Source: an uncultured Oscillospiraceae bacterium (GTDB taxonomy: Bacteria > Bacillota > Clostridia > Oscillospirales > CAG-382). Taken from it: a stretch of 63,537 nucleotides of DNA. The stretch lies in NCBI GenBank assembly GCA_964525815.1, contig CAZGJQ010000001.1, positions 1 through 63,537 of the forward strand, given 5' to 3'. The notes beneath the pieces are model-generated. The model did no database searches. It was given only the letters and a program-made list of their open reading frames with translations, and was not told the DNA's origin. Below, one piece after another: positions 1,184-31,391 of the stretch (positions are counted from its first letter, which is position 1; every line of letters begins with the position of its first letter). The position numbers were made by a program, and so were the translations under genes.

Positions 1184-1672
1184 TTGCAGGAAGAAGTTGA
1201 AAGCAGGACAGTTACACTGGCAATCACCACAACGAAGATGACCGCCAATGTTTTGAAACAGGCTATTTCCAAATATCTTGCACACCGCAAGGAAAAGAAA
1301 ATGGAGAAAGCCCGTGCCGGTCCTGTAAAACCCTGCGGGAAGCAAAGCGTGAAGCAGCTCGTAGGGCAAAATCAAGGTGTTACCAACATCGAGATTACAG
1401 ACAAGAACATCAAGGACTTTGAGCGAATTGCGAGGAAATATGGCGTTGATTTCGCTCTGAAAAAGGATAAGACCGGCGATATTCCCAAATACCTTGTTTT
1501 CTTCAAAGCTCGTGATGCCGATGCTCTGACGCAGGCATTCAAAGAGTACACGGCGAAAACCGACCGCAAGAAGGACCGTCCGTCTGTGCTCCATAAGCTC
1601 CGCAGATTCAAGGAACAGGCGGTGGACATCGACACGCCGAAGGTTCGCAAGAAGGAGCTGGATGCACGATGA
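1184..1672 (+). CDS. PcfB family protein (DUF3801)
   Basis: TTG start 8 nt after GGAGG (1171-1175). The motif GVTNIEITDKNIKDFERIARKYGVDFAL is characteristic of PcfB/DUF3801. It overlaps the next gene by 4 nt. Confidence 0.8.
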   Translation: MQEEVESRTVTLAITTTKMTANVLKQAISKYLAHRKEKKMEKARAGPVKPCGKQSVKQLVGQNQGVTNIEITDKNIKDFERIARKYGVDFALKKDKTGDIPKYLVFFKARDADALTQAFKEYTAKTDRKKDRPSVLHKLRRFKEQAVDIDTPKVRKKELDAR

Positions 1673-2293
1673 AACAGGTGAATTACAAAAAGCTCATTCT
1701 GCCCAATATCCCCTATGTGTTCATAGCCCTCTTTGCCACAAAGCTCGGACAGGCCGCACGGCTTGCACCGGGCTTTGACTTTTCCTCCAAGGTTCTGAAC
1801 ATCATGCAGGGATTCTCGATGGCATTTGAAAACATCCTGCCGAGCGTTCATCCGGTTGACCTATTGGTGGGTATTGCCGCCGCAGTCGGCTTAAAGCTGG
1901 CGGTCTACATCAAGGGCAAGAACGCCAAGAAGTTTCGCAAAAATCTGGAATACGGTTCGGCTCGCTGGGGTACACGGGAGGACATTGCGCCATTCGTTGA
2001 CCCTGTGTTTGAGAACAATGTCATTCTCACCCAAACAGAAAGCCTTATGATGTCCAACCGCCCCAAAGACCCCAAAAACGCACGAAACAAAAACGTGCTT
2101 GTGGTCGGCGGTTCGGGTTCCGGTAAGACGAGGTTCTTCATAAAGCCTCAGCTCTTACAAGCCCATTCTTCCTATGTGGTCACGGACCCGAAAGGCGGAT
2201 TAGTCAACGAAACAGGCGCTTTTCTGTTGCGAAAAAACTACCGCTTAAAAATTTTCAATACTATCAACTTCAAGAAGTCGATGCACTATAACC
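1669..2293 (+). CDS. virD4: Type IV coupling protein (VirD4/TraG/TcpA-like), exon 1
   Basis: N-terminal TM segments and Walker A VVGGSGSGKT. Family similarity ends at ...FKKSMHYN; the following residues in the ORF track are intron read-through. Confidence 0.85.
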
Positions 2294-3074
2294 GTGAAGC
2301 GACACGTTGCTCGCAAACAAACTTTGCGTGGGATTAATCCTGCAAAAAGGTAAAAGCGGCGGGAAAACATAGTTTTCCTAACTGATACCTCGAGGAGTGG
2401 AATGATGGGGTAACGCCCTGAAACGCTCCCCCTGATACTGCGTTGGAGGAAACGGAGTGCAGTCTCCGGGACTGACACAGCACGCTGAAGTCGGCTGTCT
2501 GCATCCGCTACTGTCCCTTTGGGGATAAGGCAAAACCGAGCCAGAGGTGGCCGGGGATGTTAGGCCGGGGGTCTATAAAATGCCTATGGAAAGAATGTGG
2601 TTCTCTGACCACTGACAAAAGTCCGAATGTACGGGTCTACAAGTCTCAAACGGCAGAAATGCCGTTGCCGCGTAAGCGGAGCATGTGGGGTAAAGTAAAA
2701 TTGGTTGTTATGAAATTCCCTGTGGCGTTACAGGCGTCACCCAGCATGCAGGCCCAGAGGACAAGCCTAAGGGTATTATGAACAGATAGAGGTAACGGAA
2801 CGTGGAAAGTTCCGGACGTGGAGCGATTGCACGCTATGAAGCGCTGAAAAGGAAAACCGTGTCGGCCATATCGGGAGGTGCGGTATAACTTTTCTTAATC
2901 CGGAATGAAAGTGCAGCCATGCTACCTGTGAAGCCGTGAATAAAGTAAGCGGTAGAGGGACGGGCTGTAGTCAGAGATGGATTGCAAGTATCATTTTCAT
3001 TCCTAACAAACATCATAGGTTCGAGTAGGACTAAGAAAGGCGAAAACCATGAGAAATCAGGTGAGTACCCGACT

Positions 3075-4985
3075 ATGGCAACAAAATCGAAGGTTCAAAA
3101 GAAGGCAAAATTACGCCATGCCGAATACTATGACTTCCAAAGCATTCAAGATAAGCTGTACGCCGACAGCGGCAAAGGGAAAATCTTTAAGAATTTGGTG
3201 GATATAATCACTATGCCGGAAAACATTCGGTTGGCATACCGCAACATTAAGAAGAACAGCGGGAGCAAAACGGCTGGCATAGACAACCATACAATTAAAT
3301 ATCTCGAAAATTTATCTGATGCGCAGCTAATCCGCGCAGTACAAAACAAATTACGCTGGTATGTTCCACAGAGCGTCCGCAGGGTTGAAATTCCCAAAGA
3401 TAACGACCCGTCGAAGAAGCGTCCGCTTGGCATCCCCACCATCATGGACAGACTGATACAGCAATGCGTGTTGCAGGTTTTGGAGCCGATATGCGAAGCA
3501 AAATTCCATGACCAAAGCTACGGCTTCCGGCCAAATCGCAGTCAGGAGAACGCTATCTCCAAGGTGTACAACAATATGCAGCTACGCCATCTGTATTATG
3601 TAGTGGATATCGACATCAAGGGCTTCTTTGACAATGTGAGCCATGGCAAGCTGCTGAAACAACTCTGGACATTGGGCATCCGTGACAAGAAGCTGCTGAG
3701 TATCATTTCAGCTATGCTGAAAGCGGAGGTGGCCGGTATCGGCTTCCCGAAAAGGGGTACGCCGCAGGGCGGCATCATTTCGCCGCTCTTGTCAAATGTA
3801 GTGCTCAACGAGTTGGATTGGTGGCTCGCAAGCCAATGGGAGTACTTCCCTACACGCCATCCGTTCAAATTCTATCGGCACAAAAATGGAAGCGAAAACA
3901 GAGGGAATATGTACACCTCGCTCCGTGCTTTCAGCAGATTGAAGGAAATTTCCTTCGTACGGTATGCGGACGACTTCAAAATCTTCACCAGCAGCTATCA
4001 AAATGCGGTAAAACTGTTCCATGCAACAAAGAATTGGCTGAAAGACCGCCTGAATCTGGATATCAGCCCCGAAAAATCCAAGTTAATTAACCTGAAAGAA
4101 CACTATTCGGAGTTTCTGGGATTCAAGATGAAGGTTGTTCCACGGGGAAAACGCCCGGACGGAAGCACAAAATATTCGGTCGAAAGCCATATCAAGGATA
4201 AAGCGCTGGATAAAATTCGAGAAAACCTTGCGCGGCTAACTTATGATATCGAGTTCCCTTCACAGGGTAAGCATACGCTGTACAGCGCAGTTTGTAAATA
4301 CAATGCGTATGTTATCGGTATTCATGAGTATTACGAGCTTGCAACACATATTTGCAATGACTTGAACGACATCGCCTTCTTTGTCCACAAGAGCCTGAAA
4401 GCACGGCTTCGAAACAGGCTTAAATCTGCTAAAGTTGTAAGGAAACGGAAAATTCCATGTAAAATCTCCACGGTTATCAAAAATCGGTATGGTGACAGCA
4501 ATCAATTGAAATATGTGGAGGGCTGCGCTCTTGCCCCGATTGGGTACGCACGACACAGAATCGCCAAGCAAAAGAAACGGTCGGTCAATTCCTACACACC
4601 GGAGGGCAGGGCTGAAATTCACAGCAGCTTGAACAACATTGATATGAATACCCTGCACTATCTGATGCGCAATCCTGTTCTACATTGTTCCATCGAATAC
4701 AACGACAACAGATTGTCGCTCTATTCGGCACAGCAGGGCAAATGTGCGCTCACGGGCAAACCGCTGACCATCGGCGATATCCACTGTCATCATAAAGTTC
4801 CCAAGCATTTGGGCGGCACGGACAAATACCAAAATCTTACGCTTATATGCGAAGCCGCCCACCGTCTAATCCACGCCACAAACATCGATACCATCGCAAA
4901 ATATATGGAAATCCTGAACCTTACACCCAAGCAGATGAAAACCCTGAATAGCTTTAGGAGCCTTGCTTCTGTTGAGAGTTGTTAG
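3075..4985 (+). CDS. Group II intron reverse transcriptase/maturase with C-terminal HNH endonuclease
   Basis: ATG 3075 gives MATKSKVQKK... RT motifs include RPLGIPTIMDRLIQQ and YADD (VRYADDFKIF). The maturase X region is followed by an HNH motif (CHHKVPKHLGGTDKYQNLTLICEAAHRLIH). Confidence 0.9.
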   Translation: MATKSKVQKKAKLRHAEYYDFQSIQDKLYADSGKGKIFKNLVDIITMPENIRLAYRNIKKNSGSKTAGIDNHTIKYLENLSDAQLIRAVQNKLRWYVPQSVRRVEIPKDNDPSKKRPLGIPTIMDRLIQQCVLQVLEPICEAKFHDQSYGFRPNRSQENAISKVYNNMQLRHLYYVVDIDIKGFFDNVSHGKLLKQLWTLGIRDKKLLSIISAMLKAEVAGIGFPKRGTPQGGIISPLLSNVVLNELDWWLASQWEYFPTRHPFKFYRHKNGSENRGNMYTSLRAFSRLKEISFVRYADDFKIFTSSYQNAVKLFHATKNWLKDRLNLDISPEKSKLINLKEHYSEFLGFKMKVVPRGKRPDGSTKYSVESHIKDKALDKIRENLARLTYDIEFPSQGKHTLYSAVCKYNAYVIGIHEYYELATHICNDLNDIAFFVHKSLKARLRNRLKSAKVVRKRKIPCKISTVIKNRYGDSNQLKYVEGCALAPIGYARHRIAKQKKRSVNSYTPEGRAEIHSSLNNIDMNTLHYLMRNPVLHCSIEYNDNRLSLYSAQQGKCALTGKPLTIGDIHCHHKVPKHLGGTDKYQNLTLICEAAHRLIHATNIDTIAKYMEILNLTPKQMKTLNSFRSLASVESC

Positions 4986-5013
4986 AATGACACGCAATCA
5001 CATCTTTGATGGC

Positions 5014-5047
5014 AAGCCGGGTGAGCTGAAAGGTTCATGCCCGGTTT
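5014..5047 (+). ncRNA. Group II intron domain V
   Basis: A 34-nt hairpin, AAGCCGGGTGAGCTGAAAGGTTCATGCCCGGTTT, with the AGC triad at 5015-5017, a GAAA loop at 5028-5031 and the closing stem AAGCCGGG/CCCGGTTT. Confidence 0.8.
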
Positions 5048-5096
5048 AGGGCGGGGGAAAATCCGCAGATAACATCAAAGGATTACCTATCGCTAT

Positions 5097-6289
5097 CCTT
5101 TGCTTATATCCATTCGGAGAAGGATATTTTGAAGTTGGTGACAACCCTAATCACCAATACCAAAGGTGACGGAAAATCCGGTGACGAGTTCTGGACGAAA
5201 GCGGAAACGCTGCTGTACACGGCTCTTATCGGATATATTCACTATGAAGCTCCGCCGGAAGAACAGAACTTTGCCACTCTGCTGGAGTTCATCAACGCTA
5301 TGGAAGTCCGTGAGGATGACGAGGAGTACAAAAATCCCGTTGACCGTATGTTTGAAGAACTGGCAGAAAAAGACCCAAACCACTTTGCGGTGCGCCAATA
5401 TGCAAAGTATTCTTTAGCGGCTGGCAAAACTGCTAAGTCGATTTTGGTGAGCTGCGGTGCTCGTCTGGCTCCCTTCGATATTGCAGAGCTTCGTGAAATC
5501 ACCATGTACGATGAGTTAGAGCTGGATACGCTTGGCGACAAGATATTCATTAACCCCAACGACCCCAAGGATAAGAGGTTTAGAAAGACGGCGCTGTTCC
5601 TCATTATGAGTGACACCGATTCGACCTTTAACTTCTTAATCTCTATGATTTATTCGCAGCTTTTCAACCTGCTTTGTGAGAAAGCTGATGACGTGTACGG
5701 TGGCAGATTGCCCGTCCACGTTCGATGCCTTATCGACGAGGCGGCGAATATCGGTCAGATTCCGAACCTTGAAAAGCTGGTAGCCACCATCCGAAGCCGT
5801 GAAATCTCTGCCTGTCTTGTCCTGCAGGCACAATCACAGTTAAAGGCTTTGTATAAGGACAATGCTGACACCATCATCGGTAACATGGACTCCCGTATCT
5901 TCCTGGGCGGTGCGGAACCGACCACGCTGAAAGAACTGAACCAGTCACTCGGCAAGGAAACGATTGATACCTTCAATACTGGTGAGAGCCGTGGCAGAGA
6001 GGTTTCTCATTCTCTTAACTATCAAAAGCTCGGAAAAGACCTTGCGACGATAGACGAGCTTGCCGTCCTTGATGGCGGTAAGTGCATCCTGCAGCTTCGT
6101 GGTGTAAGACCGTTTATGTCAAATAAATTCGATATAACCAAGCACCCGAACTACAAGTACCTGTCAGATGCAGACGACAGGAACTATTTCGATGTGGAAA
6201 AGTACCTCTCCACCCGTCTTAAAACCAAACCGGACGATGTTTACGAAGTTTTTGAAGTAGATGCGTCCGATGCGTCAGCAACCGCCTAA
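5097..6289 (+). CDS. virD4: Type IV coupling protein (VirD4/TraG/TcpA-like), exon 2
   Basis: It continues the frame of exon 1 after intron removal. The sequence includes TNTKGDGKSGDEFWTKAE and LIDEAANIG (Walker B-like). Confidence 0.85.
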
Positions 6290-6374
6290 CAAGCGGTTTT
6301 TATTATAGATAAGACGCCAAAGACAAAATGACCACTTTCAAAAATTAAACCAAACAAAAATTTTTGAAAGGAGC

Positions 6375-6437
6375 GCTGAAAGCAAGATTCTGTGGTCTGT
6401 GCGGCACTTGTGCCAATGCACACTCTTAGCTTTCAGC
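6375..6437 (+). promoter_or_regulatory. Leader hairpin separating the only SD-like sequence from the Maff2 start codon
   Basis: GCTGAAAGC (6375-6383) is perfectly complementary to GCTTTCAGC (6429-6437). AAAGGAG at 6367-6373 lies 1 nt before the stem and ATG 6449 lies 11 nt after it. There is no SD directly upstream of the ATG. Confidence 0.4.
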
Positions 6438-6448
6438 AACATTAGTAT

Positions 6449-6661
6449 ATGGCATTTTTTACTTCTGCAGTTGGTGTCCTCCAGACTCTCGTTATTGCTC
6501 TTGGTGCCGGTCTTGGCATTTGGGGTGTTATCAACCTTCTGGAAGGTTACGGTAACGACAACCCCGGTGCAAAGTCCCAGGGTATGAAGCAGCTCATGGC
6601 AGGCGGCGGTGTCGCTCTCATCGGTACGACCCTCGTTCCTTTGCTCTCCAGCTTGTTCTAA
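6449..6661 (+). CDS. Maff2 family small membrane protein
   Basis: A 70-aa protein with two hydrophobic segments and a central EGYGNDNPGAKSQGMKQL loop typical of the Maff2 family in Clostridial ICEs. Confidence 0.75.
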   Translation: MAFFTSAVGVLQTLVIALGAGLGIWGVINLLEGYGNDNPGAKSQGMKQLMAGGGVALIGTTLVPLLSSLF

Positions 6662-6697
6662 AGGACTGTTTCCGAAAGCAAATCAATTCCAGACCAT

Positions 6698-7641: not shown

Positions 7642-8010
7642 ATGGCTTATGTGCCCGTACCCAAAGACCTGAACGCAGTCAAAACCAAGGTTATGTTCAA
7701 CCTTACCAAACGTCAGCTCGTGTGCTTCGGCTCCGGTGCTGCGGTTGCCATTCCTCTGTTTTTTCTGTGTAAAAGCTGCATGGACACAAGTGTGGCGTCG
7801 CTCATTATGATTCTCGTCCTTTTGCCGTTTATGATGCTGGCCATGTACGAAAAGAACGGACAGCCCCTGGAAAAGATTGTCCGTAACATCGTGCAGGTCT
7901 GCATCCTGCGTCCCAAGCAGCGACCGTACCGGACCAACAACTTCTATACGGTACTGGAACGACAGGAAAAACTCGATAAGGAGGTATATCGTATTGTCCA
8001 CAAAAAGTAA
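7642..8010 (+). CDS. PrgI family T4SS membrane protein
   Basis: The N-terminus MAYVPVPKDLNAVKTKVMFNLTKRQLVCFG followed by TM segments is the PrgI-family signature. Confidence 0.75.
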   Translation: MAYVPVPKDLNAVKTKVMFNLTKRQLVCFGSGAAVAIPLFFLCKSCMDTSVASLIMILVLLPFMMLAMYEKNGQPLEKIVRNIVQVCILRPKQRPYRTNNFYTVLERQEKLDKEVYRIVHKK

Positions 8011-10381
8011 GCTCACGAGGGCGGAAAGAAAAGAAATTGAAGCCGCCATCGCAAGAGCGAAAAACCAGGATAAAAAGAAGAAGTCGGCACAGGACTCCAT
8101 TCCCTTTGAGCGAATGTTTCCCGACGGCATCTGCCGTGTGAAGCCCGGCTACTTCACCAAAACCATCCAGTTCCAGGACATCAACTATCAGCTCAATCAA
8201 AACGAAGATAAAACGGCTATCTTCGAGGGCTGGTGTGATTTCCTCAACTACTTCGACAGCTCTGTAAAATTCCAGTTGTCCTTTATGAATATGGCGGCAA
8301 ACAAGGACACCTATGGGAGCAGCATCGAAATCCCGTCACAGGGCGACGACTTTGACGGTATCCGTGAGGAATACACGGATATGCTGAGAAGCCAGCTTGC
8401 CCGTGGCAACAACGGTCTTATCAAGACCAAGTATCTGACCTTCGGTATTGAAGCGGCAAGCGTTAAGGAGGCAAAGCCGAGGCTTGACCGCATTGAGACC
8501 GACATTCTCAACAACTTTAAGAGGCTCGGCGTGACAGCAGAACCCTTGAACGGCAAACAGCGCCTTGCCTTGATGCACGGGATGTTCCACATGGATGAGC
8601 AGCTTGATTTCAACTTTTCTTGGGACTGGCTGGCACCCACCGGACTTTCCGTAAAGGACTTCATCGCCCCAAGCTCCTTTGAGTTTAGAAACGGCAAGGA
8701 GTTCGGTGTCGGCAAGAAACTGGGTGCCGTGTCCTTCCTGCAAATCCTTGCTCCCGAACTCAATGACCGTATGCTGGCAGACTTCCTTGATATGGAGTCC
8801 AGCTTGATTGTCACCATGCACATTCAGTCGGTTGACCAGGTAAAGGCAATCAAGACGGTTAAGCGTAAAATCACCGATTTGCAGAAAATGACCATTGAGG
8901 AACAGAAAAAGGCAGTTCGCTCCGGTTACGATATGGACATCATTCCAAGCGACCTTGCCACCTACGGCAATGAGGCAAAGAAAATCCTGCAGGATTTGCA
9001 GAGCCGTAACGAGCGTATGTTCCTTCTGACCTTCCTTGTGCTCAACACAGCAAACACCAAACAGCAGCTTGCCAACAACGTATTCCAGGCATCCAGCATT
9101 GCCCAGAAATACAACTGCCAGCTCACAAGACTCGACTTTCAGCAGGAAGAAGGGCTGATGTCCTCTCTGCCGTTGGGACTCAACCAAATCGAAATTCAGC
9201 GAGGCTTGACCACATCAAGCGTCGCTATTTTTGTACCCTTTACCACGCAGGAGTTGTTCCAGACCGGCGACGAAGCGCTGTACTGCGGCATCAACGCTCT
9301 TTCCAACAACCTCATTATGGTAGACCGAAAGAAGCTGAAGAACCCTAACGGCTTGATTCTTGGCACACCGGGCAGTGGTAAGTCCTTCTCGGCAAAGCGT
9401 GAGATTGCCAATGTGTTTCTCGTAACCGATGATGATATTATCATCTGCGACCCCGAAGCCGAGTACGGTCCCCTGGTGGAGCGTCTGCACGGACAGGTTA
9501 TCCGCATTTCTCCGACCTCGCCTCACTATATCAATCCCATGGATTTGAACCTCAACTATTCGGACGACGAAAATCCGTTGTCGCTGAAATCTGACTTTAT
9601 CCTCTCTCTGTGCGAGTTGATTGTCGGCGGCAAGGAGGGCTTGCAGCCTGTCGAAAAGACGGTCATCGACCGTTGTGTGCGATTGGTGTACCGGGACTAT
9701 CTGGCTGACCCCGTTCCCGAAAAGATGCCCATTCTGGAGGACTTGTACAACGAGCTTTTGAAACAGGAGGAAAAAGAAGCCCACTATATCGCAACCGCTT
9801 TGGAAATCTATGTTTCCGGCTCCCTCAATGTGTTCAACCACCGTACCAACGTGGATATTCACAGCCGTATCGTGTCCTACGACATCAAGGAGCTGGGAAA
9901 ACAGCTCAAGAAAATCGGTATGTTGATTGTCCAGGACCAGGTGTGGAACAGGGTGACGGTCAACCGTGAGGCACGGAAATCCACCCGCTACTATATCGAC
10001 GAAATGCACCTGCTTTTGAAGGAGGAGCAGACAGCAGCATACAGCGTCGAGATTTGGAAGCGATTCCGTAAATGGGGTGGCATCCCCACGGGTATCACGC
10101 AGAATGTCAAAGACCTGTTATCCAGCCGTGAGGTTGAGAACATCTTCGAGAACTCTGACTATATCTATATGCTGAACCAGGCATCCGGCGACCGTCAGAT
10201 TCTTGCCAAGCATCTGAATATATCGCCTCACCAGCTCTCGTATGTCACCCACAGCGGTGAAGGCGAAGGGCTGCTTTTTTATGGCTCCGTTATCCTGCCT
10301 TTCGTTGACCGATTCCCGAAGGATACCGAACTGTACCGTATCATGACCACCAAGCCGCAGGAACAGACGGCTAAGAATTAA
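7994..10381 (+). CDS. virB4: VirB4-like conjugal transfer ATPase
   Basis: The ORF-track frame 7877.. was trimmed to TTG 7994, 10 nt after AAGGAGG (7978-7983). It has Walker A GTPGSGKS, Walker B YYIDEMH and the typical VirB4 length. Confidence 0.85.
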   Translation: MSTKSKLTRAERKEIEAAIARAKNQDKKKKSAQDSIPFERMFPDGICRVKPGYFTKTIQFQDINYQLNQNEDKTAIFEGWCDFLNYFDSSVKFQLSFMNMAANKDTYGSSIEIPSQGDDFDGIREEYTDMLRSQLARGNNGLIKTKYLTFGIEAASVKEAKPRLDRIETDILNNFKRLGVTAEPLNGKQRLALMHGMFHMDEQLDFNFSWDWLAPTGLSVKDFIAPSSFEFRNGKEFGVGKKLGAVSFLQILAPELNDRMLADFLDMESSLIVTMHIQSVDQVKAIKTVKRKITDLQKMTIEEQKKAVRSGYDMDIIPSDLATYGNEAKKILQDLQSRNERMFLLTFLVLNTANTKQQLANNVFQASSIAQKYNCQLTRLDFQQEEGLMSSLPLGLNQIEIQRGLTTSSVAIFVPFTTQELFQTGDEALYCGINALSNNLIMVDRKKLKNPNGLILGTPGSGKSFSAKREIANVFLVTDDDIIICDPEAEYGPLVERLHGQVIRISPTSPHYINPMDLNLNYSDDENPLSLKSDFILSLCELIVGGKEGLQPVEKTVIDRCVRLVYRDYLADPVPEKMPILEDLYNELLKQEEKEAHYIATALEIYVSGSLNVFNHRTNVDIHSRIVSYDIKELGKQLKKIGMLIVQDQVWNRVTVNREARKSTRYYIDEMHLLLKEEQTAAYSVEIWKRFRKWGGIPTGITQNVKDLLSSREVENIFENSDYIYMLNQASGDRQILAKHLNISPHQLSYVTHSGEGEGLLFYGSVILPFVDRFPKDTELYRIMTTKPQEQTAKN

Positions 10382-20906: not shown

Positions 20907-20910
20907 CGTG

Positions 20911-21186
20911 TTATCTCATATTAGCGAAACGCTCTACTGCCTTTGTAAAGCTCTCGATAGTCTTATCTGCATCTCCGTTTTCGATACCATCACGAACACA
21001 ATGCTTGATGTGACCTTCCAACACAACCTTTCCGCAGCTATGTACTGCTGATTTCACAGCGTTTAACTGCGATAGCACTTCCTCACAAGGCTTGTCCTCG
21101 TCAATCATTCGGTCGATGGCTTGAATCTGACCGATGATTTTATTCAATCTACGGTGTAGATTGAAGGTGTCCATACATTTACTCAT
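20911..21186 (-). CDS. csoR: CsoR/RcnR/FrmR family metal-sensing repressor
   Basis: A 91-aa protein with RLNKIIGQIQAIDRMIDEDKPCEEVLSQLNAVKSAVHSCG. The C..H..C ligand pattern matches DUF156 repressors. Confidence 0.8.
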   Translation of the reverse strand: MSKCMDTFNLHRRLNKIIGQIQAIDRMIDEDKPCEEVLSQLNAVKSAVHSCGKVVLEGHIKHCVRDGIENGDADKTIESFTKAVERFANMR

Positions 21187-24300: not shown

Positions 24301-27300
24301 GTATATCCGTGCGGAGCTTGCCCAGCGTGGTATCGTGAACGGCGAATTGGTCGAACCCGAAAAGCTCGACAATGACCCTTTTATTCAGCAGGTAAACGCA
24401 GATGTGAAGTCACTTTCCGAGTCCGTTGAAGCGTGGGAAGCCGAACAGGAAGCGAAACGAAATGAAGCGATTGCAAGGTTGACCGATGAACAGCAGACCT
24501 TTGTGGAAGCTATGAATGTGGCAGGCTATGTGTATCAGCACAACGTTGGATATTCCGGCGAGCCTATCGTTTTCTATGCCAACACGGACAGCTATCCTAT
24601 CAGCTTTGCAAACTGGAACGATGCGTACGACTGGATTGATAATGCCGAGCTGAAGCTGGAACCCGGTCTCCGTGACAAGGTACAAGCGGTTCTTCATCCC
24701 GATGAACCACCTCGTATGACCGATGCGGAGTTTGCAGCCGAACACCTTGTCCCTCGTGAGTCCACCTATGAGATTGACGGTCGCAGATTTATCGTTGACA
24801 GCGTAAATCTTGACTTCGGAAGCGTTAGCCTGCAGGACGTGACCTTCCAGAACCAAACGGGCTTTCCGATTTTCAGAAGTGAATCCATTGAGTTTATGCG
24901 TAGGCTCGTGGAGATCAGCGAAGCACAGTGTAATGCGGAGCTGCCTACCGAGCCGAAACTGGAGTCCGAGACCGTGGCGTTTTACTCTGCGGAGGACAAT
25001 CATCTTCCGTATGATGTGGAAATCCGCACCATCAAGGCGGTCGAACCCGAACCGCCTACCCCTAAACCGGAGCTTCACAACTTCCAAATCACCGATGACC
25101 ACCTGGGCGAAGACGTGGTGACGGCGAACGCAGGCTTTTCGCCGAAAGCAAAGTTCCGTATGAATATGGATGCCATCAATCTTCTGAAAGAATTGGAGTT
25201 TGACGGCAGACAGGCAACACCGGAAGAACAGGTTATTTTGTCGAAATATGTCGGTTGGGGCGGTCTGGCAGATGCCTTTGATGAAACAAAGGACAACTGG
25301 AAGAACGAGTTCGCAGAGCTATACGCAACCCTTTCTCCCGAAGAATACGCCGCAGCACGAAGTTCTACACTGAACGCTCACTATACAAGTCCTACCGTCA
25401 TTAAGGCTATCTATGAAGCCGTTGGCAATATGGGCTTTGAGACCGGCAACATTCTGGAGCCGTCTATGGGCGTCGGCAATTTCTTCGGTTGTCTGCCCGA
25501 AACGATGCAGAACAGTAAGCTCTACGGCGTGGAGCTGGACAGCATCACAGGGCGAATCGCAAAACAGCTTTACCCCAAGGCAGACATCACTATTGCAGGC
25601 TTTGAGACCACCGACAGACGAGACTTCTATGACCTCGCTATCGGCAACGTGCCTTTCGGTCAGTACCAAGTGAACGACCGTGCTTATAACAAGCTCGGCT
25701 TTTCTATCCACGATTACTTTTTTGCCAAGGCTCTCGACCAGGTAAGACCGGGCGGTGTGGTTGCGTTCGTGACCTCCCGATACACCATGGATAAGCAATC
25801 TCCCGAAGTGCGTAAGTATATCGCACAGAGAGCCGAACTGCTCGGTGCTATCCGTCTGCCCAACAATGCTTTCAAGGCAAACGCAGGAACAGAGGTCGTC
25901 TCCGACATCATCTTCCTGCAAAAGCGTGACAGACCGATTGAGATTGAACCCGATTGGGTGCATCTTGGCAAGAACGACGACGGGTTTGCCATCAACAGCT
26001 ATTTCATCGACAACCCCGAAATGGTGCTTGGTCGCCAGACCTCGGAAAGCACACAGTACGGTAAACAGGACTTTACTGTTGAGCCGTATGAGGGCTTGGA
26101 TTTGAGCGTTCAGCTCAAGTACGCTATCCAGAACATCAAGGGCACTTATACCGAAGCGGAGCTTCCCGAACTCGGTGATGGTGAAGCCATTGATACCTCT
26201 ATCCCGGCAGACCCGAACGTAAAGAACTACTCCTATACCGTGGTGGACGGCGATGTGTACTACCGTGAAAACAGCCGAATGGTGAAGCCCGAACTCAACG
26301 CAACGGCAACGGAGCGTGTTAAGGGTATGGTGGAGCTTCGGGACTGCGTTCAAAAGCTCATCGGTCAGCAGATGGACGGTTTCGTTTCGGATGCGACCAT
26401 CCGTGAGACCCAAAGAGAGCTGAACGACCTCTACGACAAATTCACAGCAAAACACGGTCTTATCAACAGCCGTGGCAACGCACTTGCTTTTGCAGACGAC
26501 AGCTCCTATTATCTGCTTTGCTCTCTGGAAGTGCTCGACGAGGACAACAACCTCAAACGCAAGGCGGATATGTTCACCAAGCGTACCATTAAGCCGAGCG
26601 AGGTCGTGACCTCGGTTGACACGGCTGCGGAAGCTCTGGCAGTTTCTATCGCAGAGAAAGCCCGTGTGGATATGGAGTATATGTCCTCTCTGACCGGCAA
26701 GAGCGAAGAAGAACTCGCAAGCGATTTGCGTAGCGTTATCTATATGGATTTCAACCGCAAGCCCGATGGCCCGTACACTTGGCGTACTGCTGATGATTTT
26801 CTCTCCGGTAACGTCCGTGAAAAGCTCGCCTACTATCAGAAAGCTCTTGACCTTCTTCCCGAAGATGCGAACCACCGCAACGAGATTGCCGACAATGTGG
26901 AAGCTCTTAAAATGGCACAGCCCAAAGACCTGGATGCCTCTGAAATCGAAGTACGCCTCGGTGCAACGTGGATTGACAAGTCCTATATTCAGCAGTTTAT
27001 GGTGGAGACCTTTGAACCGCCGTATTACCTGCGCAGGAGCATCGAAGTGAACTACTCGCCTTTCTCGGCAGAATGGAACATTACGGGGAAATCTCAGCCG
27101 TCCTACAGCGACGTAAACGCCTATATGACCTACGGCACGGACAGAGCCAACGCCTACAAGATTTTGGAGGACACTCTGAATCTGCGTGATGTTCGTATCT
27201 ATGACACCGTAACTGACCCCGACGGCAAGGAAAGACGTGTGCTGAACTCCAAGGAAACGACCCTTGCACAGCAGAAGCAGCAGGCAATCAAAGATGCGTT

Positions 27301-30082
27301 CCAGGATTGGATTTGGAGAGACCCGGACAGACGACAGGAGCTTGTCACGAAGTACAACGAGCTTTTCAACTCCAATCGTCCCCGTGAGTACGACGGCTCT
27401 CATATCGTGTTCAGCGGTATGAACCCCGAAATCAAGCTCCGTGAACATCAGCTCAATGCCGTTGCTCACATTCTCTACGGCGGGAACACCTTGCTTGCAC
27501 ACGAAGTTGGCGCAGGCAAGACCTTTGAAATGGTCGCCGCCGCTATGGAAAGTAAACGCCTCGGTCTTTGTCAAAAGCCTTTGTTTGTCGTTCCCAACCA
27601 CTTGACCGAGCAATGGGCAAGTGAGTTCCTCCGTCTTTATCCGTCTGCCAATATTCTTGCCGCAACAAAAAAGGACTTTGAGCCGAGAAACCGCAAAAAG
27701 TTCTGCGGCAGAATTGCTACCGGCGACTACGATGCCATCATCATCGGACACAGCCAGTTTGAGCGTATTCCCGTATCCCAGGAACGACAGGAGCGACTTC
27801 TGCAGGAGCAGATTGCAGAGATTGAGGAGGGCTTGGAGGAACTGAAAGCCAGCCGAGCCGAACGCTTTACCATCAAATCCCTGGAGCGTACCAAAAAGGG
27901 CTTGGAGACGAGACTGCAGAAGCTCCAGGACAGCTCCCGCAAGGATGATGTAATCACCTTTGAACAGCTCGGCGTTGACCGTCTGTATGTGGACGAGGCG
28001 CACAATTACAAGAATTTGTTCCTCTACACGAAGATGCGAAACGTGGCAGGTCTCTCGACCACCGATGCACAGAAGTCCTCTGATATGCTTCTCAAATGCC
28101 GCTATATCGACGAGCTGACCGACAGCCGAGGCGTGATATTCGCAACGGGAACTCCCGTCTCTAACTCCATGACGGAGCTGTACACGATGATGCGATACCT
28201 GCAGCACGACACCATTCGCAACAAGGGATTGGCACACTTCGATTGTTGGGCATCCACTTTTGGAGAGACCACAACCGCCATTGAGCTTGCACCGGAGGGT
28301 ACGGGCTACCGAGCAAGAACACGATTTGCAAAGTTTTTCAATCTGCCCGAACTGATGAACCTGTTCAAAGAAGCGGCAGACATTAAGACAGCCGACCAGC
28401 TCAACCTACCGACCCCGACACCTATCTACCACAACGAAGTGGCACAGCCTACGGAAATCCAAAAGGCTATGGTGCAGGAGTTGTCCGAAAGAGCCGCTGC
28501 GGTTCATTCGGGTAAGGTTGACCCGTCCGTGGACAATATGCTTCGCATTACCTCAGACGGTCGCAAGCTCGGTCTCGACCAACGCATCATCAATCCAAAC
28601 CTTCCCGATGAGCCGACAAGTAAGGTCAATATGTGCGTGGATAACATTCATCGCATTTGGGAGGACGGTCACGCTGACAAGCTGACCCAGCTCGTGTTCT
28701 GTGATTTGAGCACACCGAAAAGCACAGCGACCAAGAGAGCTGCCAAAGCTCCTGCAGGAAATCTCGACAGCCCCGAAATCCGGGCATTGGAGCACCTTGC
28801 AGAAAAGGACGGCGGCACAGAGGAAGAACAGCGCTTCACCGTCTATGATGACATCCGAGACAAATTGGTGGAGCGTGGTATTCCGAGAGAACAGATTGCT
28901 TTCATTCACGAGGCAAATACCGAAGCCCGTAAAAAGGAATTGTTCAGCAAAGTCCGTTCCGGTCAAGTCCGTGTTCTTATGGGTTCCACCTTTAAGATGG
29001 GAGCCGGTATGAACGTCCAGGACAGGCTTATCGCACTCCACGACCTTGATGCACCCTGGAGACCCGGAGACCTTGAACAGCGTTCCGGTCGTATTATTCG
29101 CCAGGGCAATATGAACCCCGAAGTCCACATTTACCGCTATGTGACGGAGGCGACCTTCGATGCGTACCTTTGGCAGACCTTGGAGAACAAGCAGAAGTTT
29201 ATCTCGCAGATTATGACTTCCAAATCTCCCGTGAGAGCCTGCGATGACATTGACGAAACTGCACTTTCCTATGCGGAAATCAAAGCTCTGTGTGCCGGTG
29301 ATGAGCGAATTAAAGAGAAGATGGACCTGGATGTGGATGTTGCTCGTTTGAAGCTGATGAAGGCAAACCACCAAAGTCAGCAGTACCGCTTGGAGGACAA
29401 TCTGCTCCGTTATTTCCCCGAACAGATTGAGCAGAACAAGAAATTCATTGAAGGCTTCAATGCCGATATGAAAACTCTTGCAGAGCATCCTCACCCCGTT
29501 GACTGCTTTGCCGGTATGACAGTTAGGGGCGACGTGTTGACCGATAAGGAAAACGCAGGCGCAGCACTTGTTGATGCTTTCAAAGATGTTAAGGGACTTG
29601 ACCCTGTGCAGATTGGCACTTACCGAGGCTTTACGATGTCGCTCACCTTGGAGGACTTCGGGCGTGATTACGTTCTGACCCTCAAAGGACAGATGACCCA
29701 CCGTGTCACCCTCGGCAAAGACCCTCGTGGTAATTTGACAAGAATCGACAACGCTCTGAATGGTATGGCTGAACGCCTTAACACCGTTCAGGGCAAGCTC
29801 GACAGTCTCTATTCGCAGATGGAGACCGCAAAGCAGGAGCTTGGCAAGCCGTTCCCGCAGGAGGCAGAGCTGAAAGCGAAATCCGCAAGGCTGGCTGAAC
29901 TCAATATCGCTTTGAACATCGACGATAAGACCCCCCTTGAAGCTATGGCAGAGGAAGCTCCATCGAGAGCCGAGATTGCCAAATCCGCAAAACCGTCCGT
30001 CTTGCAAAAGCTCCATTCCTACGATAAGACGAGCAAGGCAGACCCGTTAGAACCGAAAAAATCCAAAGAGGAGGTACGCTGA
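21329..30082 (+). CDS. Giant polyvalent protein: ArdC-N-like ssDNA-binding, MutS-I-like, N6-adenine DNA methyltransferase and SNF2 helicase domains
   Basis: A single 2917-codon open frame with a TTG start 8 nt after GAAGGAGG. The domains are listed as separate features below. Confidence 0.85.
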   Translation: MPSKLDFYSQMADRTARQVTGSFGEWTAFLETMGRLYKYPFHEQLMIFAQKPNATACADYDLWNKQMGRYVRRGTKGIALIDTSGDNPRLKYVFDVSDTGGRENSRRLNLWEYKDEHQDTVTAALENRFGVSGEKGLADQLEKIASKLVTEYWNDNRRDILGILADSFLEEYDDYNVEVAFRNAATVSTTYTLMSRCGLNPGDYFEHEDFLSVFDFNTRDTIAALGTVISNTSEQVLRQIAVTVKNHEREASLQQQAERTQSYGEHIELHEERGLLYPESDADRDRDEAPGQVWQDAEAVPAGAQTGAVEPDDSVGEPVPASEGNRRDGEPQNGTDDARTDESERRDGGTESQRPDEVGGLDEQPQSASRRNNSRRTGSGITGQLTLFDVGLFPSEQEQISFIDEAESVKPAPFAFSFAQEDIDDVLRLASNSEHTRMNVAAAFQKQKPMDEIVSLLQKEYHGGAGLKSERGEFSVWYAEDGIHLAKGRTARYSKTAQVISWEDAAERIGQLMDEGKYATNVELAEAELHERTELSHKLWYIRGDLSDEAREQNVLGTLQDYRRGGFPDATARLAEDLKDPTFREMLSADYAAFMDAYKAERDVMRFHYHKPVEIWNALQDLDLPRRECTSDMAEVPKVGMFITEDEIDATLNRGSNVKGGKGRIYGYLTGSHNSKEKADFLKNEYGIGGSSHSVSGRGWIDSSGKGIRLQKPDCADVELNWNKVLTRFENLIRNGRYFTPEQKAKYEEMQTREGQFRKLMDAYNDIKHEHPDDIVLFQVGDFFETYGEDAKTAAKLLDLNLTTRPVAGAGRVEMCGIPAHTLEQSVEKLRATHGVTVSEFNGIVNEHISRSLPVLPAVEELSQEPEIEPVSVTEAPNESPPATVEAPVVSREITQAEIDEALQRWNGDIESKRSVVRYMADHARERDTAAWLSKEYGGDVSKPLHITVTGTDIDYEMSWAKVQRRVAQLIKEDRFYTQEEYDRLDDIDPVYIRAELAQRGIVNGELVEPEKLDNDPFIQQVNADVKSLSESVEAWEAEQEAKRNEAIARLTDEQQTFVEAMNVAGYVYQHNVGYSGEPIVFYANTDSYPISFANWNDAYDWIDNAELKLEPGLRDKVQAVLHPDEPPRMTDAEFAAEHLVPRESTYEIDGRRFIVDSVNLDFGSVSLQDVTFQNQTGFPIFRSESIEFMRRLVEISEAQCNAELPTEPKLESETVAFYSAEDNHLPYDVEIRTIKAVEPEPPTPKPELHNFQITDDHLGEDVVTANAGFSPKAKFRMNMDAINLLKELEFDGRQATPEEQVILSKYVGWGGLADAFDETKDNWKNEFAELYATLSPEEYAAARSSTLNAHYTSPTVIKAIYEAVGNMGFETGNILEPSMGVGNFFGCLPETMQNSKLYGVELDSITGRIAKQLYPKADITIAGFETTDRRDFYDLAIGNVPFGQYQVNDRAYNKLGFSIHDYFFAKALDQVRPGGVVAFVTSRYTMDKQSPEVRKYIAQRAELLGAIRLPNNAFKANAGTEVVSDIIFLQKRDRPIEIEPDWVHLGKNDDGFAINSYFIDNPEMVLGRQTSESTQYGKQDFTVEPYEGLDLSVQLKYAIQNIKGTYTEAELPELGDGEAIDTSIPADPNVKNYSYTVVDGDVYYRENSRMVKPELNATATERVKGMVELRDCVQKLIGQQMDGFVSDATIRETQRELNDLYDKFTAKHGLINSRGNALAFADDSSYYLLCSLEVLDEDNNLKRKADMFTKRTIKPSEVVTSVDTAAEALAVSIAEKARVDMEYMSSLTGKSEEELASDLRSVIYMDFNRKPDGPYTWRTADDFLSGNVREKLAYYQKALDLLPEDANHRNEIADNVEALKMAQPKDLDASEIEVRLGATWIDKSYIQQFMVETFEPPYYLRRSIEVNYSPFSAEWNITGKSQPSYSDVNAYMTYGTDRANAYKILEDTLNLRDVRIYDTVTDPDGKERRVLNSKETTLAQQKQQAIKDAFQDWIWRDPDRRQELVTKYNELFNSNRPREYDGSHIVFSGMNPEIKLREHQLNAVAHILYGGNTLLAHEVGAGKTFEMVAAAMESKRLGLCQKPLFVVPNHLTEQWASEFLRLYPSANILAATKKDFEPRNRKKFCGRIATGDYDAIIIGHSQFERIPVSQERQERLLQEQIAEIEEGLEELKASRAERFTIKSLERTKKGLETRLQKLQDSSRKDDVITFEQLGVDRLYVDEAHNYKNLFLYTKMRNVAGLSTTDAQKSSDMLLKCRYIDELTDSRGVIFATGTPVSNSMTELYTMMRYLQHDTIRNKGLAHFDCWASTFGETTTAIELAPEGTGYRARTRFAKFFNLPELMNLFKEAADIKTADQLNLPTPTPIYHNEVAQPTEIQKAMVQELSERAAAVHSGKVDPSVDNMLRITSDGRKLGLDQRIINPNLPDEPTSKVNMCVDNIHRIWEDGHADKLTQLVFCDLSTPKSTATKRAAKAPAGNLDSPEIRALEHLAEKDGGTEEEQRFTVYDDIRDKLVERGIPREQIAFIHEANTEARKKELFSKVRSGQVRVLMGSTFKMGAGMNVQDRLIALHDLDAPWRPGDLEQRSGRIIRQGNMNPEVHIYRYVTEATFDAYLWQTLENKQKFISQIMTSKSPVRACDDIDETALSYAEIKALCAGDERIKEKMDLDVDVARLKLMKANHQSQQYRLEDNLLRYFPEQIEQNKKFIEGFNADMKTLAEHPHPVDCFAGMTVRGDVLTDKENAGAALVDAFKDVKGLDPVQIGTYRGFTMSLTLEDFGRDYVLTLKGQMTHRVTLGKDPRGNLTRIDNALNGMAERLNTVQGKLDSLYSQMETAKQELGKPFPQEAELKAKSARLAELNIALNIDDKTPLEAMAEEAPSRAEIAKSAKPSVLQKLHSYDKTSKADPLEPKKSKEEVR
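21440..21620 (+). other. ArdC-N-like ssDNA-binding domain of the polyvalent protein
   Basis: YPFHEQLMIFAQKPNATACADYDLWNKQMGRYVRRGTKGIALI parallels the ArdC-N motif of the protein encoded at 17310. Confidence 0.5.
22116..22472 (+). CDS. tnpV: TnpV-family ORF nested out of frame inside the polyvalent gene
   Basis: The 118-aa ORF (MENTLNYTKNGDYFIPNLTLTETETKPLGKYGRMRKQYLQEHRPVLWNQM...GVTEELKASDPMKWVGLMNNLKAQAEE) matches the TnpV family of Tn4451-type elements along its whole length as I recall it. AAAGGA lies 9 nt upstream of the ATG, and third codon positions are strongly G/C-biased. Confidence 0.6.
   Translation: MENTLNYTKNGDYFIPNLTLTETETKPLGKYGRMRKQYLQEHRPVLWNQMILSESLYPHLREIDETANRRMEQMMPELMKANGVTEELKASDPMKWVGLMNNLKAQAEETILAELVLA
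23645..23842 (+). other. MutS domain I-like module of the polyvalent protein
   Basis: DDIVLFQVGDFFETYGEDAKTAAKLLDLNLTTR...VEMCGIPAHTLEQSVEKLRATHGVTV resembles the MutS N-terminal mismatch-binding domain. Confidence 0.6.
25370..25935 (+). other. N6-adenine DNA methyltransferase domain of the polyvalent protein
   Basis: AdoMet motif ILEPSMGVGNFFG and catalytic motif GNVPFG (25643-25660). Confidence 0.75.
27440..29110 (+). other. SNF2-family helicase domain of the polyvalent protein
   Basis: Motif I LAHEVGAGKTFEM, motif II YVDEAHNYKN and the helicase-C motif LEQRSGRIIRQGN. Confidence 0.8.
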
Positions 30083-30084
30083 TT

Positions 30085-30570
30085 ATGGATAGCGAGAAGA
30101 TAAATGTGCTCGTGGTTGAACCGGAGAAAAAGCCGTATATGAAAGAAATTTCATCGGAGCTTTCTTCTCTGCAGCACGAGGTCGGCGGCTATATTCAAGC
30201 CGTTTATCCCTATGATGAGCCTGTCGCCATTATTTGCGACGAAGAAGCGAAACTGAAAGGAAGCGAACTGAACCGTGTGCTCCGTGACGAGGACGGCAAA
30301 ATCTATGATGTGATTGCCGGCACATTCCTTGTCGTGGGTTTGGGCGAGGAGGATTTCTCCTCGCTCACTCCCGAACACGCAAAGCAGTTCAAGGAAAAGT
30401 TTGACACACCCGAAATGTTTATGCGGCTCAATGGCAAGCTGGTTATGATTCCTATGGAGGAAGAAAGAGTAAAAGCAAAGAAGCCGTCCGTGCTTCAAAA
30501 GCTCAACGATATGAAAACATTGGATGCCCCTTCTGCCGTTAAGAAGCCCCACGCAAAGGAGGAACGCTGA
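30085..30570 (+). CDS. DUF3846 domain protein
   Basis: INVLVVEPEKKPYMKEISSELSSLQHEVGGYIQAVYPYDEPVAIICDEEAKLKG is typical of DUF3846. It has a strong SD. Confidence 0.75.
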   Translation: MDSEKINVLVVEPEKKPYMKEISSELSSLQHEVGGYIQAVYPYDEPVAIICDEEAKLKGSELNRVLRDEDGKIYDVIAGTFLVVGLGEEDFSSLTPEHAKQFKEKFDTPEMFMRLNGKLVMIPMEEERVKAKKPSVLQKLNDMKTLDAPSAVKKPHAKEER

Positions 30571-31391
30571 TGACCAACGAAGAACTGAACACGGCATTGT
30601 ATGAAAAACTCTTTGCCGAGCAACAGGACTTCAAAGGGTGGCTGGTAAAACAGCCACCCGAAGAAATCCTCAAACACGCCTACGAGTATGTTATCCGTGA
30701 GGATATTGTTATCGAGATGGAGTACCACGACTTGACCGACGATGAGGCGAAAGCTCTGCTTGCCGATGAAAAGCCCCTGCAGGCTATCTTCTCTGTATAT
30801 GAAAATATCGAGGGCGGTCATATGGACGAAATCCGAGATTGTATTGAATCCAGGGCAAAGACCTGTATAGAAAATCAGCGTGAAGCCCTCCGCAATCTTC
30901 CCGTGTATATCTTCTCTGCGACCTTTGCTAAAGGACACGGAGAGCTTGAAGAATACCGAGCCTCGTTCAAGGCGAATGTTGCTTGCAGGGATGCCATCGA
31001 GGATGCGATTGCAAGCCACTACGCAGATAACCGTTTGGACGGTTCCTGTGTGCAGGAGGTCGTTGACCGTTTCGGTGCGGAGCGTGTTTCTTTCGTTCTT
31101 GCCAACACCATACAGCACAAGGATTGGGATGGGAGTATTTCTCCGCAGAATAAGGAGTGGGCAAAAGCCGAGCCTGTCCCGAATGACTTCGATGCCTGGA
31201 ACAACAAAAAAACCTTGGAGTATTCCTGCAACAAGGCTCACCCTGGTCTTATCAATCTGTTCGTCAATCGGTTCAGAAAGGAACAGGAGCTTGAAAAAGC
31301 AAAGAAGCCGTCTGTGCTGAAAAAGCTCCACGAGGCAAAAGCGGATGTGCCGAAAAAGTCTCCGAGCAAAACAAAGGAGGCTGAATTGTAA
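30570..31391 (+). CDS. DUF3849 domain protein
   Basis: ASFKANVACRDAIEDAIASHY...VSFVLANTIQHKDWDGSISPQNKEWA is typical of DUF3849. It has a 1-nt overlap with the upstream gene. Confidence 0.7.
   Translation: MTNEELNTALYEKLFAEQQDFKGWLVKQPPEEILKHAYEYVIREDIVIEMEYHDLTDDEAKALLADEKPLQAIFSVYENIEGGHMDEIRDCIESRAKTCIENQREALRNLPVYIFSATFAKGHGELEEYRASFKANVACRDAIEDAIASHYADNRLDGSCVQEVVDRFGAERVSFVLANTIQHKDWDGSISPQNKEWAKAEPVPNDFDAWNNKKTLEYSCNKAHPGLINLFVNRFRKEQELEKAKKPSVLKKLHEAKADVPKKSPSKTKEAEL

Follow-up and report, generated by a model that had tools for sequence, protein, structure and literature searches.

Conjugative type IV secretion systems (T4SSs) transfer the primases Sog and TraC, and we know of no common sequence tag for such Gram-negative substrates. 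Conjugation by pED208/F exports ParA, ParB, SSB and PsiB into recipients (PMC8406263), and in Agrobacterium a C-terminal signal is read by the VirD4-type coupling protein (PMC6362355, PMC10025392). For Gram-positive bacteria, a T4SS review from late 2025 describes the evidence on substrate recruitment as limited and raises the question of effector export by other Gram-positive T4SSs (PMC12857230). Here, we describe a short C-terminal tail common to five proteins encoded on a stretch of 63,537 nucleotides from an uncultured Oscillospiraceae bacterium (GenBank assembly GCA_964525815.1, contig CAZGJQ010000001.1, positions 1 to 63,537; hereafter the window), which carries an integrative and conjugative element (ICE) of the Tn1549 family. 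Among the ICEs of gut Firmicutes this family is dominant, and it carries vanB.

Comparative sequence analysis establishes that the tail is a portable C-terminal module, conserved at the protein level and confined to a single family of conjugation systems. As to its role, the balance leans slightly towards a portable tag by which the coupling protein or the T4SS of Tn1549-family elements recruits or translocates proteins.

Five copies of one C-terminal tail

An earlier note on this DNA had pointed to a PSVLxKL heptad near the C-terminus of five backbone proteins of the ICE, and had taken it as a shared docking or translocation signal. A six-frame regular-expression scan of the window retrieved the heptad at these five places and nowhere else, each time on the plus strand and in frame with a real gene (Table 1), and counting from the Pro to the last residue returned exactly the distances first given (30, 29, 29, 28 and 27 residues, in map order). 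The names originally attached to the five carriers agree with their Pfam domain content, but their description as backbone proteins has to be corrected: PcfB alone belongs to the backbone, and the other four are variable-region proteins (PMC12084326). In the same survey, of Faecalibacterium ICEs, the function of PcfB is given as 'not defined', and ArdC, YodL and methylase proteins are listed as 'variable' genes.

The expected number of chance matches to PSVLxKL in the six-frame window is 0.014 from amino-acid composition, and 200 dinucleotide-preserving shuffles of the window gave a mean of 0.03 and a maximum of one. With a hidden Markov model (HMM) of the 20-residue core, the five copies scored 31-37 bits and the next best segment of the window 6.6 bits. 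At the DNA level the five cores (36 nucleotides) are only 55-89% identical, so that they are not the outcome of a recent nucleotide duplication.

Another copy of the core, ..SRPSVLAALEAKRKE.., lies at positions 641-661 inside the DUF6017/HTH_36 gene (122-1057) immediately 5' of pcfB, 138 residues before the C-terminus of this replication-initiator-like protein. It is kept in the closest relative (L006, 4831-5700; 10.6 bits) and is one of just two non-C-terminal core matches in the 86 loci described below. The copy could be due to chance or be an internal docking site.

Conservation across the element family

Related loci came from two sources: the plasmid collection gave five full elements, and VirB4, used as an anchor with one genome per species, led to 80 loci. 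In the scans, 86 loci were covered. An HMM of the tail, iterated over these loci, found 111 tail-bearing open reading frames (ORFs) in 63 of the 86. Nearly all (108/111) lie on the VirB4 strand, and there are no antisense false positives, as the other three are in a single locus stored inverted. A core-only HMM applied to all ORFs of at least 60 residues gave 105 matches of at least 10 bits at 20-45 residues before the stop, versus two elsewhere, and the loose pattern P[ST][VIL]xxx[LIMV] formed a sharp peak at 25-34 residues from the C-terminus (44-62 matches, versus 1-3 per 5-residue bin elsewhere). Both the conservation of the motif and its distance to the chain end, for which the earlier note had suggested a scan of related ICEs, thus hold in the wider family.

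The consensus was derived from 102 unique tails. Numbered from the Ser, which is invariant (100%), it has [K/R] at -2 (98%), P (56%), K (20%) or E (8%) at -1, V (71%), I (20%) or L (7%) at +1, L (68%), R (10%) or M (9%) at +2, Q or K at +4 and Leu at +5 (93%). A flexible spacer of ~12-16 residues, rich in K, E, P and A, leads to a terminal segment with K at -7, E at -4 and E at -2 from the end, the last residue being R (44%), L (34%) or I (12%). The whole module can be written as a basic residue, [P/K/E]-S-[V/I]-[L/R/M]-x-[Q/K]-L, a charged spacer and a terminal K..E-x-E-[R/L/I]. The PSVLxKL heptad is therefore real in its five copies but is not the conserved unit of the family, in which the Ser is fixed and the Pro occurs in little more than half of the tails. 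From the Ser to the end there are 26-31 residues in 93 of the 102 tails; the position looks locked because the conserved unit is the whole tail of ~30-35 residues, including its terminal K..ExE[R/L/I]. On average the tails have a net charge of about +3, and 35% of their residues are K, E or R.

Tn1549 itself has tails of the PSIRxxL form, on PcfB (..QRPSIRKVL..GLEL), on a polyvalent ArdA/ArdC/YodL protein of 1306 residues (..EKPSIRAQL..GLEVE) and on the adjoining protein of 314 residues (..PRPSIRKQL..NELEV). The tail is also found in distant elements of Streptococcus and Anaerococcus, and its conservation reaches elements with 29% PcfB identity. All six Ser codons are used for the invariant Ser and six codons for the Leu positions; with synonymous codons free and residues fixed, the constraint is on the protein and not on the DNA. 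A DNA-level repeat or recent duplication was ruled out as the cause of the likeness by this free synonymous variation and the low nucleotide identity.

An exhaustive HMMER search of 1.84 billion representative proteins with a 41-position tail profile gave only 42 significant matches, the profile being too short for more, and nearly all were at the C-terminus. The three others were two false positives on low-complexity repeats and one fragment that looks frameshifted. Neither megablast of the ICE nor tblastn of the tail peptide gave a match in the plasmid collection.

Proteins that carry the tail

PcfB has the tail in all 45 loci with a PcfB homologue. Among 238 PcfB-family proteins from a collection of 5.8 billion proteins, 232 have the strict core, four are one residue off and two are frameshifted. 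The 64 carriers other than PcfB fall into 12 body clusters; taken over all carriers, the tail occurs on 13 such clusters and in over 20 Pfam families, always within Tn1549-family conjugation modules. The tail is in this way common to otherwise unrelated proteins encoded with one T4SS.

By Pfam, the 64 non-PcfB carriers contain DUF4316 (36 proteins), YodL (33), ArdC-N (30), LPD16 (19), DUF6782 (10), the DnaG zinc ribbon (9), LPD28 (8), DUF5688 (5), Peptidase_M78 (4), ArdA and DUF3848 (3 each), DUF3849, DarA_C, LPD18, MutS_I and MPTase-PolyVal (2 each), and RadC, SpoVG, DUF3846, LPD15, LPD25 and SNF2 (1 each). The count is conservative, since an ArdA protein of locus L003 that ends ..EKSSIMDRL..GEIEL fell below the HMM threshold and was left uncounted. 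Judged by their domains, the carriers are soluble element-encoded proteins predicted to act on incoming DNA or in the recipient. These classes match those for which delivery through T4SSs was predicted, with no signal named, by Iyer et al. in 2017 (PMC5512222).

Proteins and relatives without the tail

Searched with the tail and core HMMs in the window and the related loci, the T4SS and DNA-processing proteins T4CP (the VirD4-like type IV coupling protein), VirB4, VirB6, PrgI, the cell-wall hydrolases, topoisomerase III (TopB), MobC and the relaxase gave no tail. Phage homologues lack it as well: DUF3846 proteins of four cultured phages end just past the domain, two phage ArdC-N proteins (one from a record deposited as unverified) have no tail, and six phage loci gave no tail-HMM match. 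In this small phage sample, the tail is absent from homologues not associated with a T4SS.

One record deposited as 'UNVERIFIED: Bacteriophage sp.' (L091, GenBank MT836243.1) encodes a PcfB with the tail together with a T4CP, VirB6 and VirB4. From this gene content it is a Tn1549-family ICE fragment and not a phage, and other MT83xxxx records that match ICE proteins may likewise be ICE fragments.

On the Lacticaseibacillus paracasei plasmid NZ_CP007125.1 (L086), where the S[VI]L core is absent, three proteins nevertheless have ..ER as their last residues: PcfB (KERER), the relaxase (DIER) and a DUF3991 primase-like protein (ALER). This may be chance, or the terminal acidic-Arg end may be an older part of the signal.

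Modularity and concerted variation

Four metagenome fragments (P0012, P0019, P0024 and P0040) join a DUF3846-type or other body to a distal tail of the DUF3849 type (..PKKSPGKAKEAEL). As one protein's body is here fused to another protein's tail, the module moves between proteins, and the tails recombine between genes at or near the PSVL core. A candidate-filtered database search with a 43-residue tail profile retrieved only short fragments of close relatives, with chimeric tails among them.

Different proteins of one element have the same core variant: PSVL in B-type elements, PSIR in A-type elements and [K/E]SI[L/H/T] in the Streptococcus/Anaerococcus clade. The core of PcfB and those of the other carriers of the same element are identical at 5.5 of 13 positions, versus 4.74 +/- 0.20 after permutation of elements (p about 2-4e-4), and this likeness persists when one element per PcfB core type is used. 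Between elements, the similarity of cargo tails correlates with that of the T4CP (r = 0.72) and of the PcfB tail (r = 0.81), and more weakly with that of their own preceding body of 200 residues (r = 0.58). In partial Mantel tests that control for the cargo body, r is 0.53 for the T4CP and 0.71 for the PcfB tail (p = 2e-4 for each). This apparent co-variation of tail and T4CP is indirect and confounded by phylogeny.

Predicted structure of the tail

An AlphaFold2 model of PcfB was computed from 33 sequences. It has a long helix and then a beta-alpha-beta-beta-alpha core. The chain breaks at residues 131-134 (..DRPS); a separate helix (135-147) coincides with the tail core, and residues 149-162 are disordered. 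The model fits a tail made of a capped amphipathic helix and a flexible charged end, and a short helix after a break, followed by disorder, would be typical of a linear docking motif. By composition and model, the tail is hydrophilic and net-positive with a short helix and a disordered end, as in the class of C-terminal T4SS signals. When the PcfB model was compared with the PDB by Foldseek, no match was significant. The weak matches (E >= 0.06) recur on type I KH domains, which bind single-stranded DNA (ssDNA) or RNA, and hint that PcfB may bind the transferred strand.

The host element and its gene map

By gene content and order, the element classifies as a B-type Tn1549-family ICE as defined in PMC12084326. 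The gene set of the family is present in its typical order (MOBP relaxase with MobC, CD1115-type VirD4, CD1110-type VirB4, PcfB, TopB and a CD1107-like protein), and the relaxase is co-oriented with the T4SS genes, which is the defining trait of the B-type (PMC12084326). VirB4 of the window is 65-71% identical to VirB4 of Tn1549 and its relatives, and PcfB homologues in the plasmid collection lead to Tn1549 (the vanB transposon on pMG2200) and related elements. The ICE is common: the exact DUF3846 protein occurs in 538 blocks of the assembly collection, with the same neighbours in 6/6 places shown. The polyvalent protein of 2917 residues was likewise found in metagenome relatives.

The conjugation module occupies the left 33.6 kb of the window and encodes a DUF6017/HTH protein, PcfB, the T4CP, VirB4, an NlpC/P60 hydrolase, a CD1107-like protein, topoisomerase III, MobC and a MOBP-type relaxase; a defence-type island lies 3' of the relaxase (Table 1). 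The stop codon of pcfB overlaps the start codon of the T4CP gene, and the latter is interrupted by a group II intron that splits a Pro codon as C|CC. In one relative (L097), a reverse-transcriptase insertion sits in the polyvalent methylase-helicase gene instead of the T4CP gene, and in Anaerococcus pAPRE01 an intron parts a helicase protein from its tail-bearing last exon.

Table 1. Features of the window, with the positions of the tail modules and of the PSVLxKL heptads within them
Feature	Position (nt)	Strand	Evidence or remark
pcfB (DUF3801, 162 residues), backbone, with tail	1184-1672	+	Pfam DUF3801, 6.6e-42
PcfB tail module, ..DRPSVLHKLRRFKEQAVDIDTPKVRKKELDAR	1574-1669	+	Core HMM, family tail HMM; heptad 1580-1600
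VirD4-like coupling protein (T4CP), exon 1	1669-2293	+	tblastn with intact L006 T4CP, residues 1-208; Pfam T4SS-DNA_transf
Group II intron inside T4CP gene	2294-5096	+	Junction by alignment to uninterrupted L006 T4CP
Intron-encoded protein ORF	2982-4985	+	Within group II intron
T4CP, exon 2, acidic C-terminus ..DDVYEVFEVDASDASATA	5097-6289	+	Pfam TraG-D_C, T4SS-DNA_transf, TrwB_AAD_bind
VirB4-like ATPase, no tail	7877-10381	+	Anchor for the 80 related loci
GNAT acetyltransferase	16557-17180		
ArdC-N, metallopeptidase-like, LPD28, YodL and DUF4316 protein (770 residues), with tail	17310-19622	+	Pfam
ArdC-like protein tail module, ..SKKPSVLAKLRQYQTEDRQQTTQHRSAERDLI	19527-19619	+	DUF4316 profile ends on core; heptad 19533-19553
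EamA-family transporter (His-rich C-terminus) and CsoR-like metal-sensing repressor	19878-21186	-	Cargo pair between two tail-bearing genes
Polyvalent MutS_I, N6-methylase and SNF2-helicase protein (2917 residues), with tail	21329-30082	+	Pfam
Polyvalent methylase-helicase tail module, ..SAKPSVLQKLHSYDKTSKADPLEPKKSKEEVR	29987-30079	+	Core HMM, family tail HMM; heptad 29993-30013
DUF3846 protein (161 residues), with tail	30085-30570	+	Pfam DUF3846 over residues 6-106 only
DUF3846 protein tail module, ..AKKPSVLQKLNDMKTLDAPSAVKKPHAKEER	30478-30567	+	Core HMM, family tail HMM; heptad 30484-30504
DUF3848 and DUF3849 protein (273 residues), with tail	30570-31391	+	Pfam
DUF3848 and DUF3849 protein tail module, ..AKKPSVLKKLHEAKADVPKKSPSKTKEAEL	31302-31388	+	Core HMM, family tail HMM; heptad 31308-31328
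MobC/NikA-like relaxosome accessory protein, no tail	31391-31729	+	Pfam
MOBP-type relaxase, no S[VI]L core, end ..RKEKEHGRE	32202-33575	+	Pfam, core HMM
Defence-type island	33750-50004	-	Two GmrSD-N proteins, ResIII helicase-endonuclease (1051 residues), SNF2/ResIII helicase (1088 residues)
Large serine recombinase, probably the ICE integrase	60433-62064		Near right end

Discussion

The combined results suggest a model of how the tail may work. A basic patch and a helix-capping [K/R]-[P/K/E]-Ser open a short, predicted amphipathic helix, S-[V/I]-[L/R/M]-x-[Q/K]-L-x-x-[F/Y/M/L]. In the donor, the tail would dock its carriers on the VirD4-like coupling protein, or on a complex of PcfB and the coupling protein, at the type IV secretion channel, and the docked carriers would be delivered into the recipient with the DNA or ahead of it. 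Its constant spacing from the chain end would be explained if the helix and the free charged C-terminus were read at the same time. The features expected of such a signal were all found where they were looked for: conservation in orthologues and distant relatives, a set C-terminal spacing, unrelated soluble carriers, absence from the T4SS machinery and from phage homologues, constraint at the protein level, and variants that change in step. The common signal proposed by the earlier note has in this sense held up, with the reservation that the relaxase lacks the tail and that PcfB, as a backbone protein, is not an obvious cargo.

Several observations weigh against this model. The relaxases of the window and of loci L001-L004 have no core and, the relaxase being an obligatory substrate, the tail cannot be the general signal of this T4SS; a C-terminal relaxase signal is not universal for the class, those of the F and R388 relaxases being internal. 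The S[VI]L core is missing from a Lacticaseibacillus plasmid that has PcfB and a T4CP of the same family (CD1115-type), so that the tag is not universal to PcfB-bearing systems either. PcfB is a universal backbone protein, for which a role as adaptor or regulator fits as well as one as cargo, and its model is of modest confidence (mean predicted local distance difference test score 66). The last 20 residues of the T4CP have a median net charge of -4 (55 T4CPs) and are a weakly supported candidate receptor for the basic tail, because the charge is zero or positive in 15 of the 55. The concerted variation is lost when the A-type (PSIR) and Streptococcus/Anaerococcus clades are removed (p = 0.15); it consists of two or three clade-level switches common to several proteins, which would fit co-evolution with a single receptor, and gene conversion as well. 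Fine-scale co-variation within elements was rejected as a separate signal, as it is not significant once the deep clades are removed. The tail-less relaxase, the backbone status of PcfB and the small number of clade events are the reasons why the function of the tail is something that we infer.

Among the alternatives, an assembly role inside the donor deserves most attention, although we regard it as unlikely. Here, the tail would dock the carriers on a common hub and so gather them at the site of transfer or on the DNA, with no export; the hub could be PcfB, the complex of the relaxosome or T-strand, or a different protein of the ICE or host. PcfB would suit such a hub as a universal carrier that is translationally coupled to the T4CP and whose core fold resembles, weakly and non-significantly, KH domains that bind ssDNA or RNA; many carriers have the ssDNA-binding ArdC-N domain, which Iyer et al. 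proposed as a DNA-riding 'header', and the lack of a tail on the relaxase also speaks for this explanation. However, anti-restriction and methylase functions are needed in the recipient and not in the donor, the tail is also found on carriers with no DNA-binding domain, and a motif that binds a hub has no obvious need of a fixed distance to a free C-terminus.

Membrane targeting, in which the basic-hydrophobic core (KKPSVLxKLxxF) binds anionic membrane in the manner of the C-terminal helices of MinD and FtsA, would agree with the alternation of basic and hydrophobic residues in a core predicted to be helical and with the net charge of about +3. Known membrane-targeting helices, however, form the extreme end of their chain and are hydrophobic over a larger face, and lipid binding has no need of an invariant Ser, a conserved Gln/Lys and Leu, a terminal K..ExE[R/L/I] or a spacing of 26-31 residues. 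The clade-specific change from L to R (PSIR) within the hydrophobic face argues against lipid insertion as well, and we consider this explanation very doubtful.

A degron or processing site, by which potentially toxic carriers would be sent to proteolysis, or cleaved by a protease of the ICE or host, and so be limited or activated in the donor, is highly improbable. Chain ends such as ..ER, ..EL and ..EI are unlike the hydrophobic degrons of the ssrA type. The C-terminal location would fit, as would the many polyvalent carriers with M78 or zincin peptidase domains, which are thought to be self-processing (PMC5512222), but small single-domain proteins and PcfB have the tail too, and neither its absence from phage homologues nor its restriction to one T4SS family would be explained. 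Finally, a shared ending of no function (a recombination scar, a cassette junction or a translated DNA- or RNA-level element) is suggested by the swapping of tails between proteins and by the shuffling of the variable genes of these ICEs (PMC12084326), but it is largely refuted, and essentially excluded, by the low DNA identity of the cores, by synonymous codons that vary while residues stay fixed, and by conservation that reaches down to 29% PcfB identity.

The recruitment or translocation tag can be extended to a bolder proposal, for which we would put the chances a little short of even: that, among conjugative T4SSs of Gram-positive bacteria, the tail is the first portable export tag to be defined by sequence, that it defines the 'injected proteome' of the Tn1549 family and would be enough to carry a heterologous protein from donor to recipient, and that PcfB acts as adaptor or as a co-transferred DNA-binding partner. 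If so, the injected proteome would comprise PcfB, anti-restriction proteins, methylase-helicases, primases and polyvalent proteins. The tail bears on the question of how Gram-positive conjugation chooses its protein substrates, and whether it injects any protein beyond the relaxase, and it gives the 2017 delivery prediction for polyvalent anti-defence proteins a testable handle in the form of a short, strictly positioned and easily mutated tag. Such a tag yields a prediction of the exported set, is open to removal or to transfer onto other proteins in reporter assays, and can be used as bait for a receptor. Elements of the Tn1549 family abound in the human gut and spread vancomycin resistance. 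A way to block the tag, or to exploit it, could therefore matter for the spread of resistance and for delivering proteins to gut anaerobes in which transformation is difficult.

Comparison with known systems

Parts of the tail are already included in two Pfam families of unknown function. In the ArdC-like protein, DUF4316 (PF14195) ends on KPSVLxKL (residues 698-749; 66.9 bits versus a threshold of 25), and the isolated tails of all five proteins fall below its gathering threshold (25 bits). Positions of about 99-130 of DUF3801 (PF12687) correspond to the PcfB tail, PcfB scoring 143 bits versus a threshold of 24.1. The other four proteins are non-members: their tails gave 12-15 bits or nothing against profile positions 98-130, and the weak matches are those of the ArdC-like protein and the DUF3849 protein. 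Of the five window tails, three match neither family, and in the polyvalent protein of Tn1549 the DUF4316 domain lies inside the chain, with over 300 residues between it and the true tail. Both families were defined together with an upstream domain; the terminal ExE[R/L/I] is outside both, and the tail is not set apart in either. The literature accessible without subscription that was searched makes no mention of DUF4316, and in what it holds on DUF4316, PcfB, Tn1549 signals and Gram-positive translocation signals the tail is not described as a shared signal. The partial tail within DUF4316 and DUF3801 exists already, and the tail as a shared C-terminal signal is most likely new.

The 'header' hypothesis for ArdC-N (Iyer et al. 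2017, PMC5512222) deals with these very proteins in this ICE family, and it too predicts delivery by a T4SS. The header is an N-terminal ssDNA-binding domain, whereas the tail is C-terminal and is also found on PcfB, DUF3846, DUF3849 and methylase-helicase proteins, which have no ArdC-N; that paper makes no mention of a C-terminal tag.

One of the two closest parallels to the tail, in character, is the signal of the Agrobacterium VirB/VirD4 substrates VirE2, VirE3, VirF, VirD2 and VirD5, which is likewise C-terminal, hydrophilic, net-positive and unstructured, and is shared by unrelated proteins with a role in the recipient. In Agrobacterium, however, the pattern is loose and Arg-rich and follows no strict motif, in contrast to the invariant Ser, defined helix, fixed spacing and terminal ExE[R/L/I] of the tail. 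Furthermore, the tail belongs to a Gram-positive (monoderm) T4SS whose relaxase lacks it, unlike in Agrobacterium, where the relaxase VirD2 has the signal. In terms of cargo, a further parallel is conjugation by pED208/F and the transfer of Sog and TraC, where establishment proteins, anti-defence proteins and primases are delivered; the tail carriers include primase zinc ribbons and anti-restriction domains. Unlike the pED208/F substrates, the tail carriers have a common tag, and their transfer is here a prediction.

The other of the two closest parallels, in architecture, is the XVIPCD (VirD4-interacting conserved C-terminal domain) of Xanthomonas T4SS toxins (PMC8740702), a conserved C-terminal module on many unrelated effector bodies of one T4SS family. 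The XVIPCD is a folded domain of ~120 residues with experimentally proven binding to the all-alpha domain of the T4CP, whereas the tail is a peptide of ~35 residues known from sequence. With the tail, as with the XVIPCD, substrates are predictable from their sequence.

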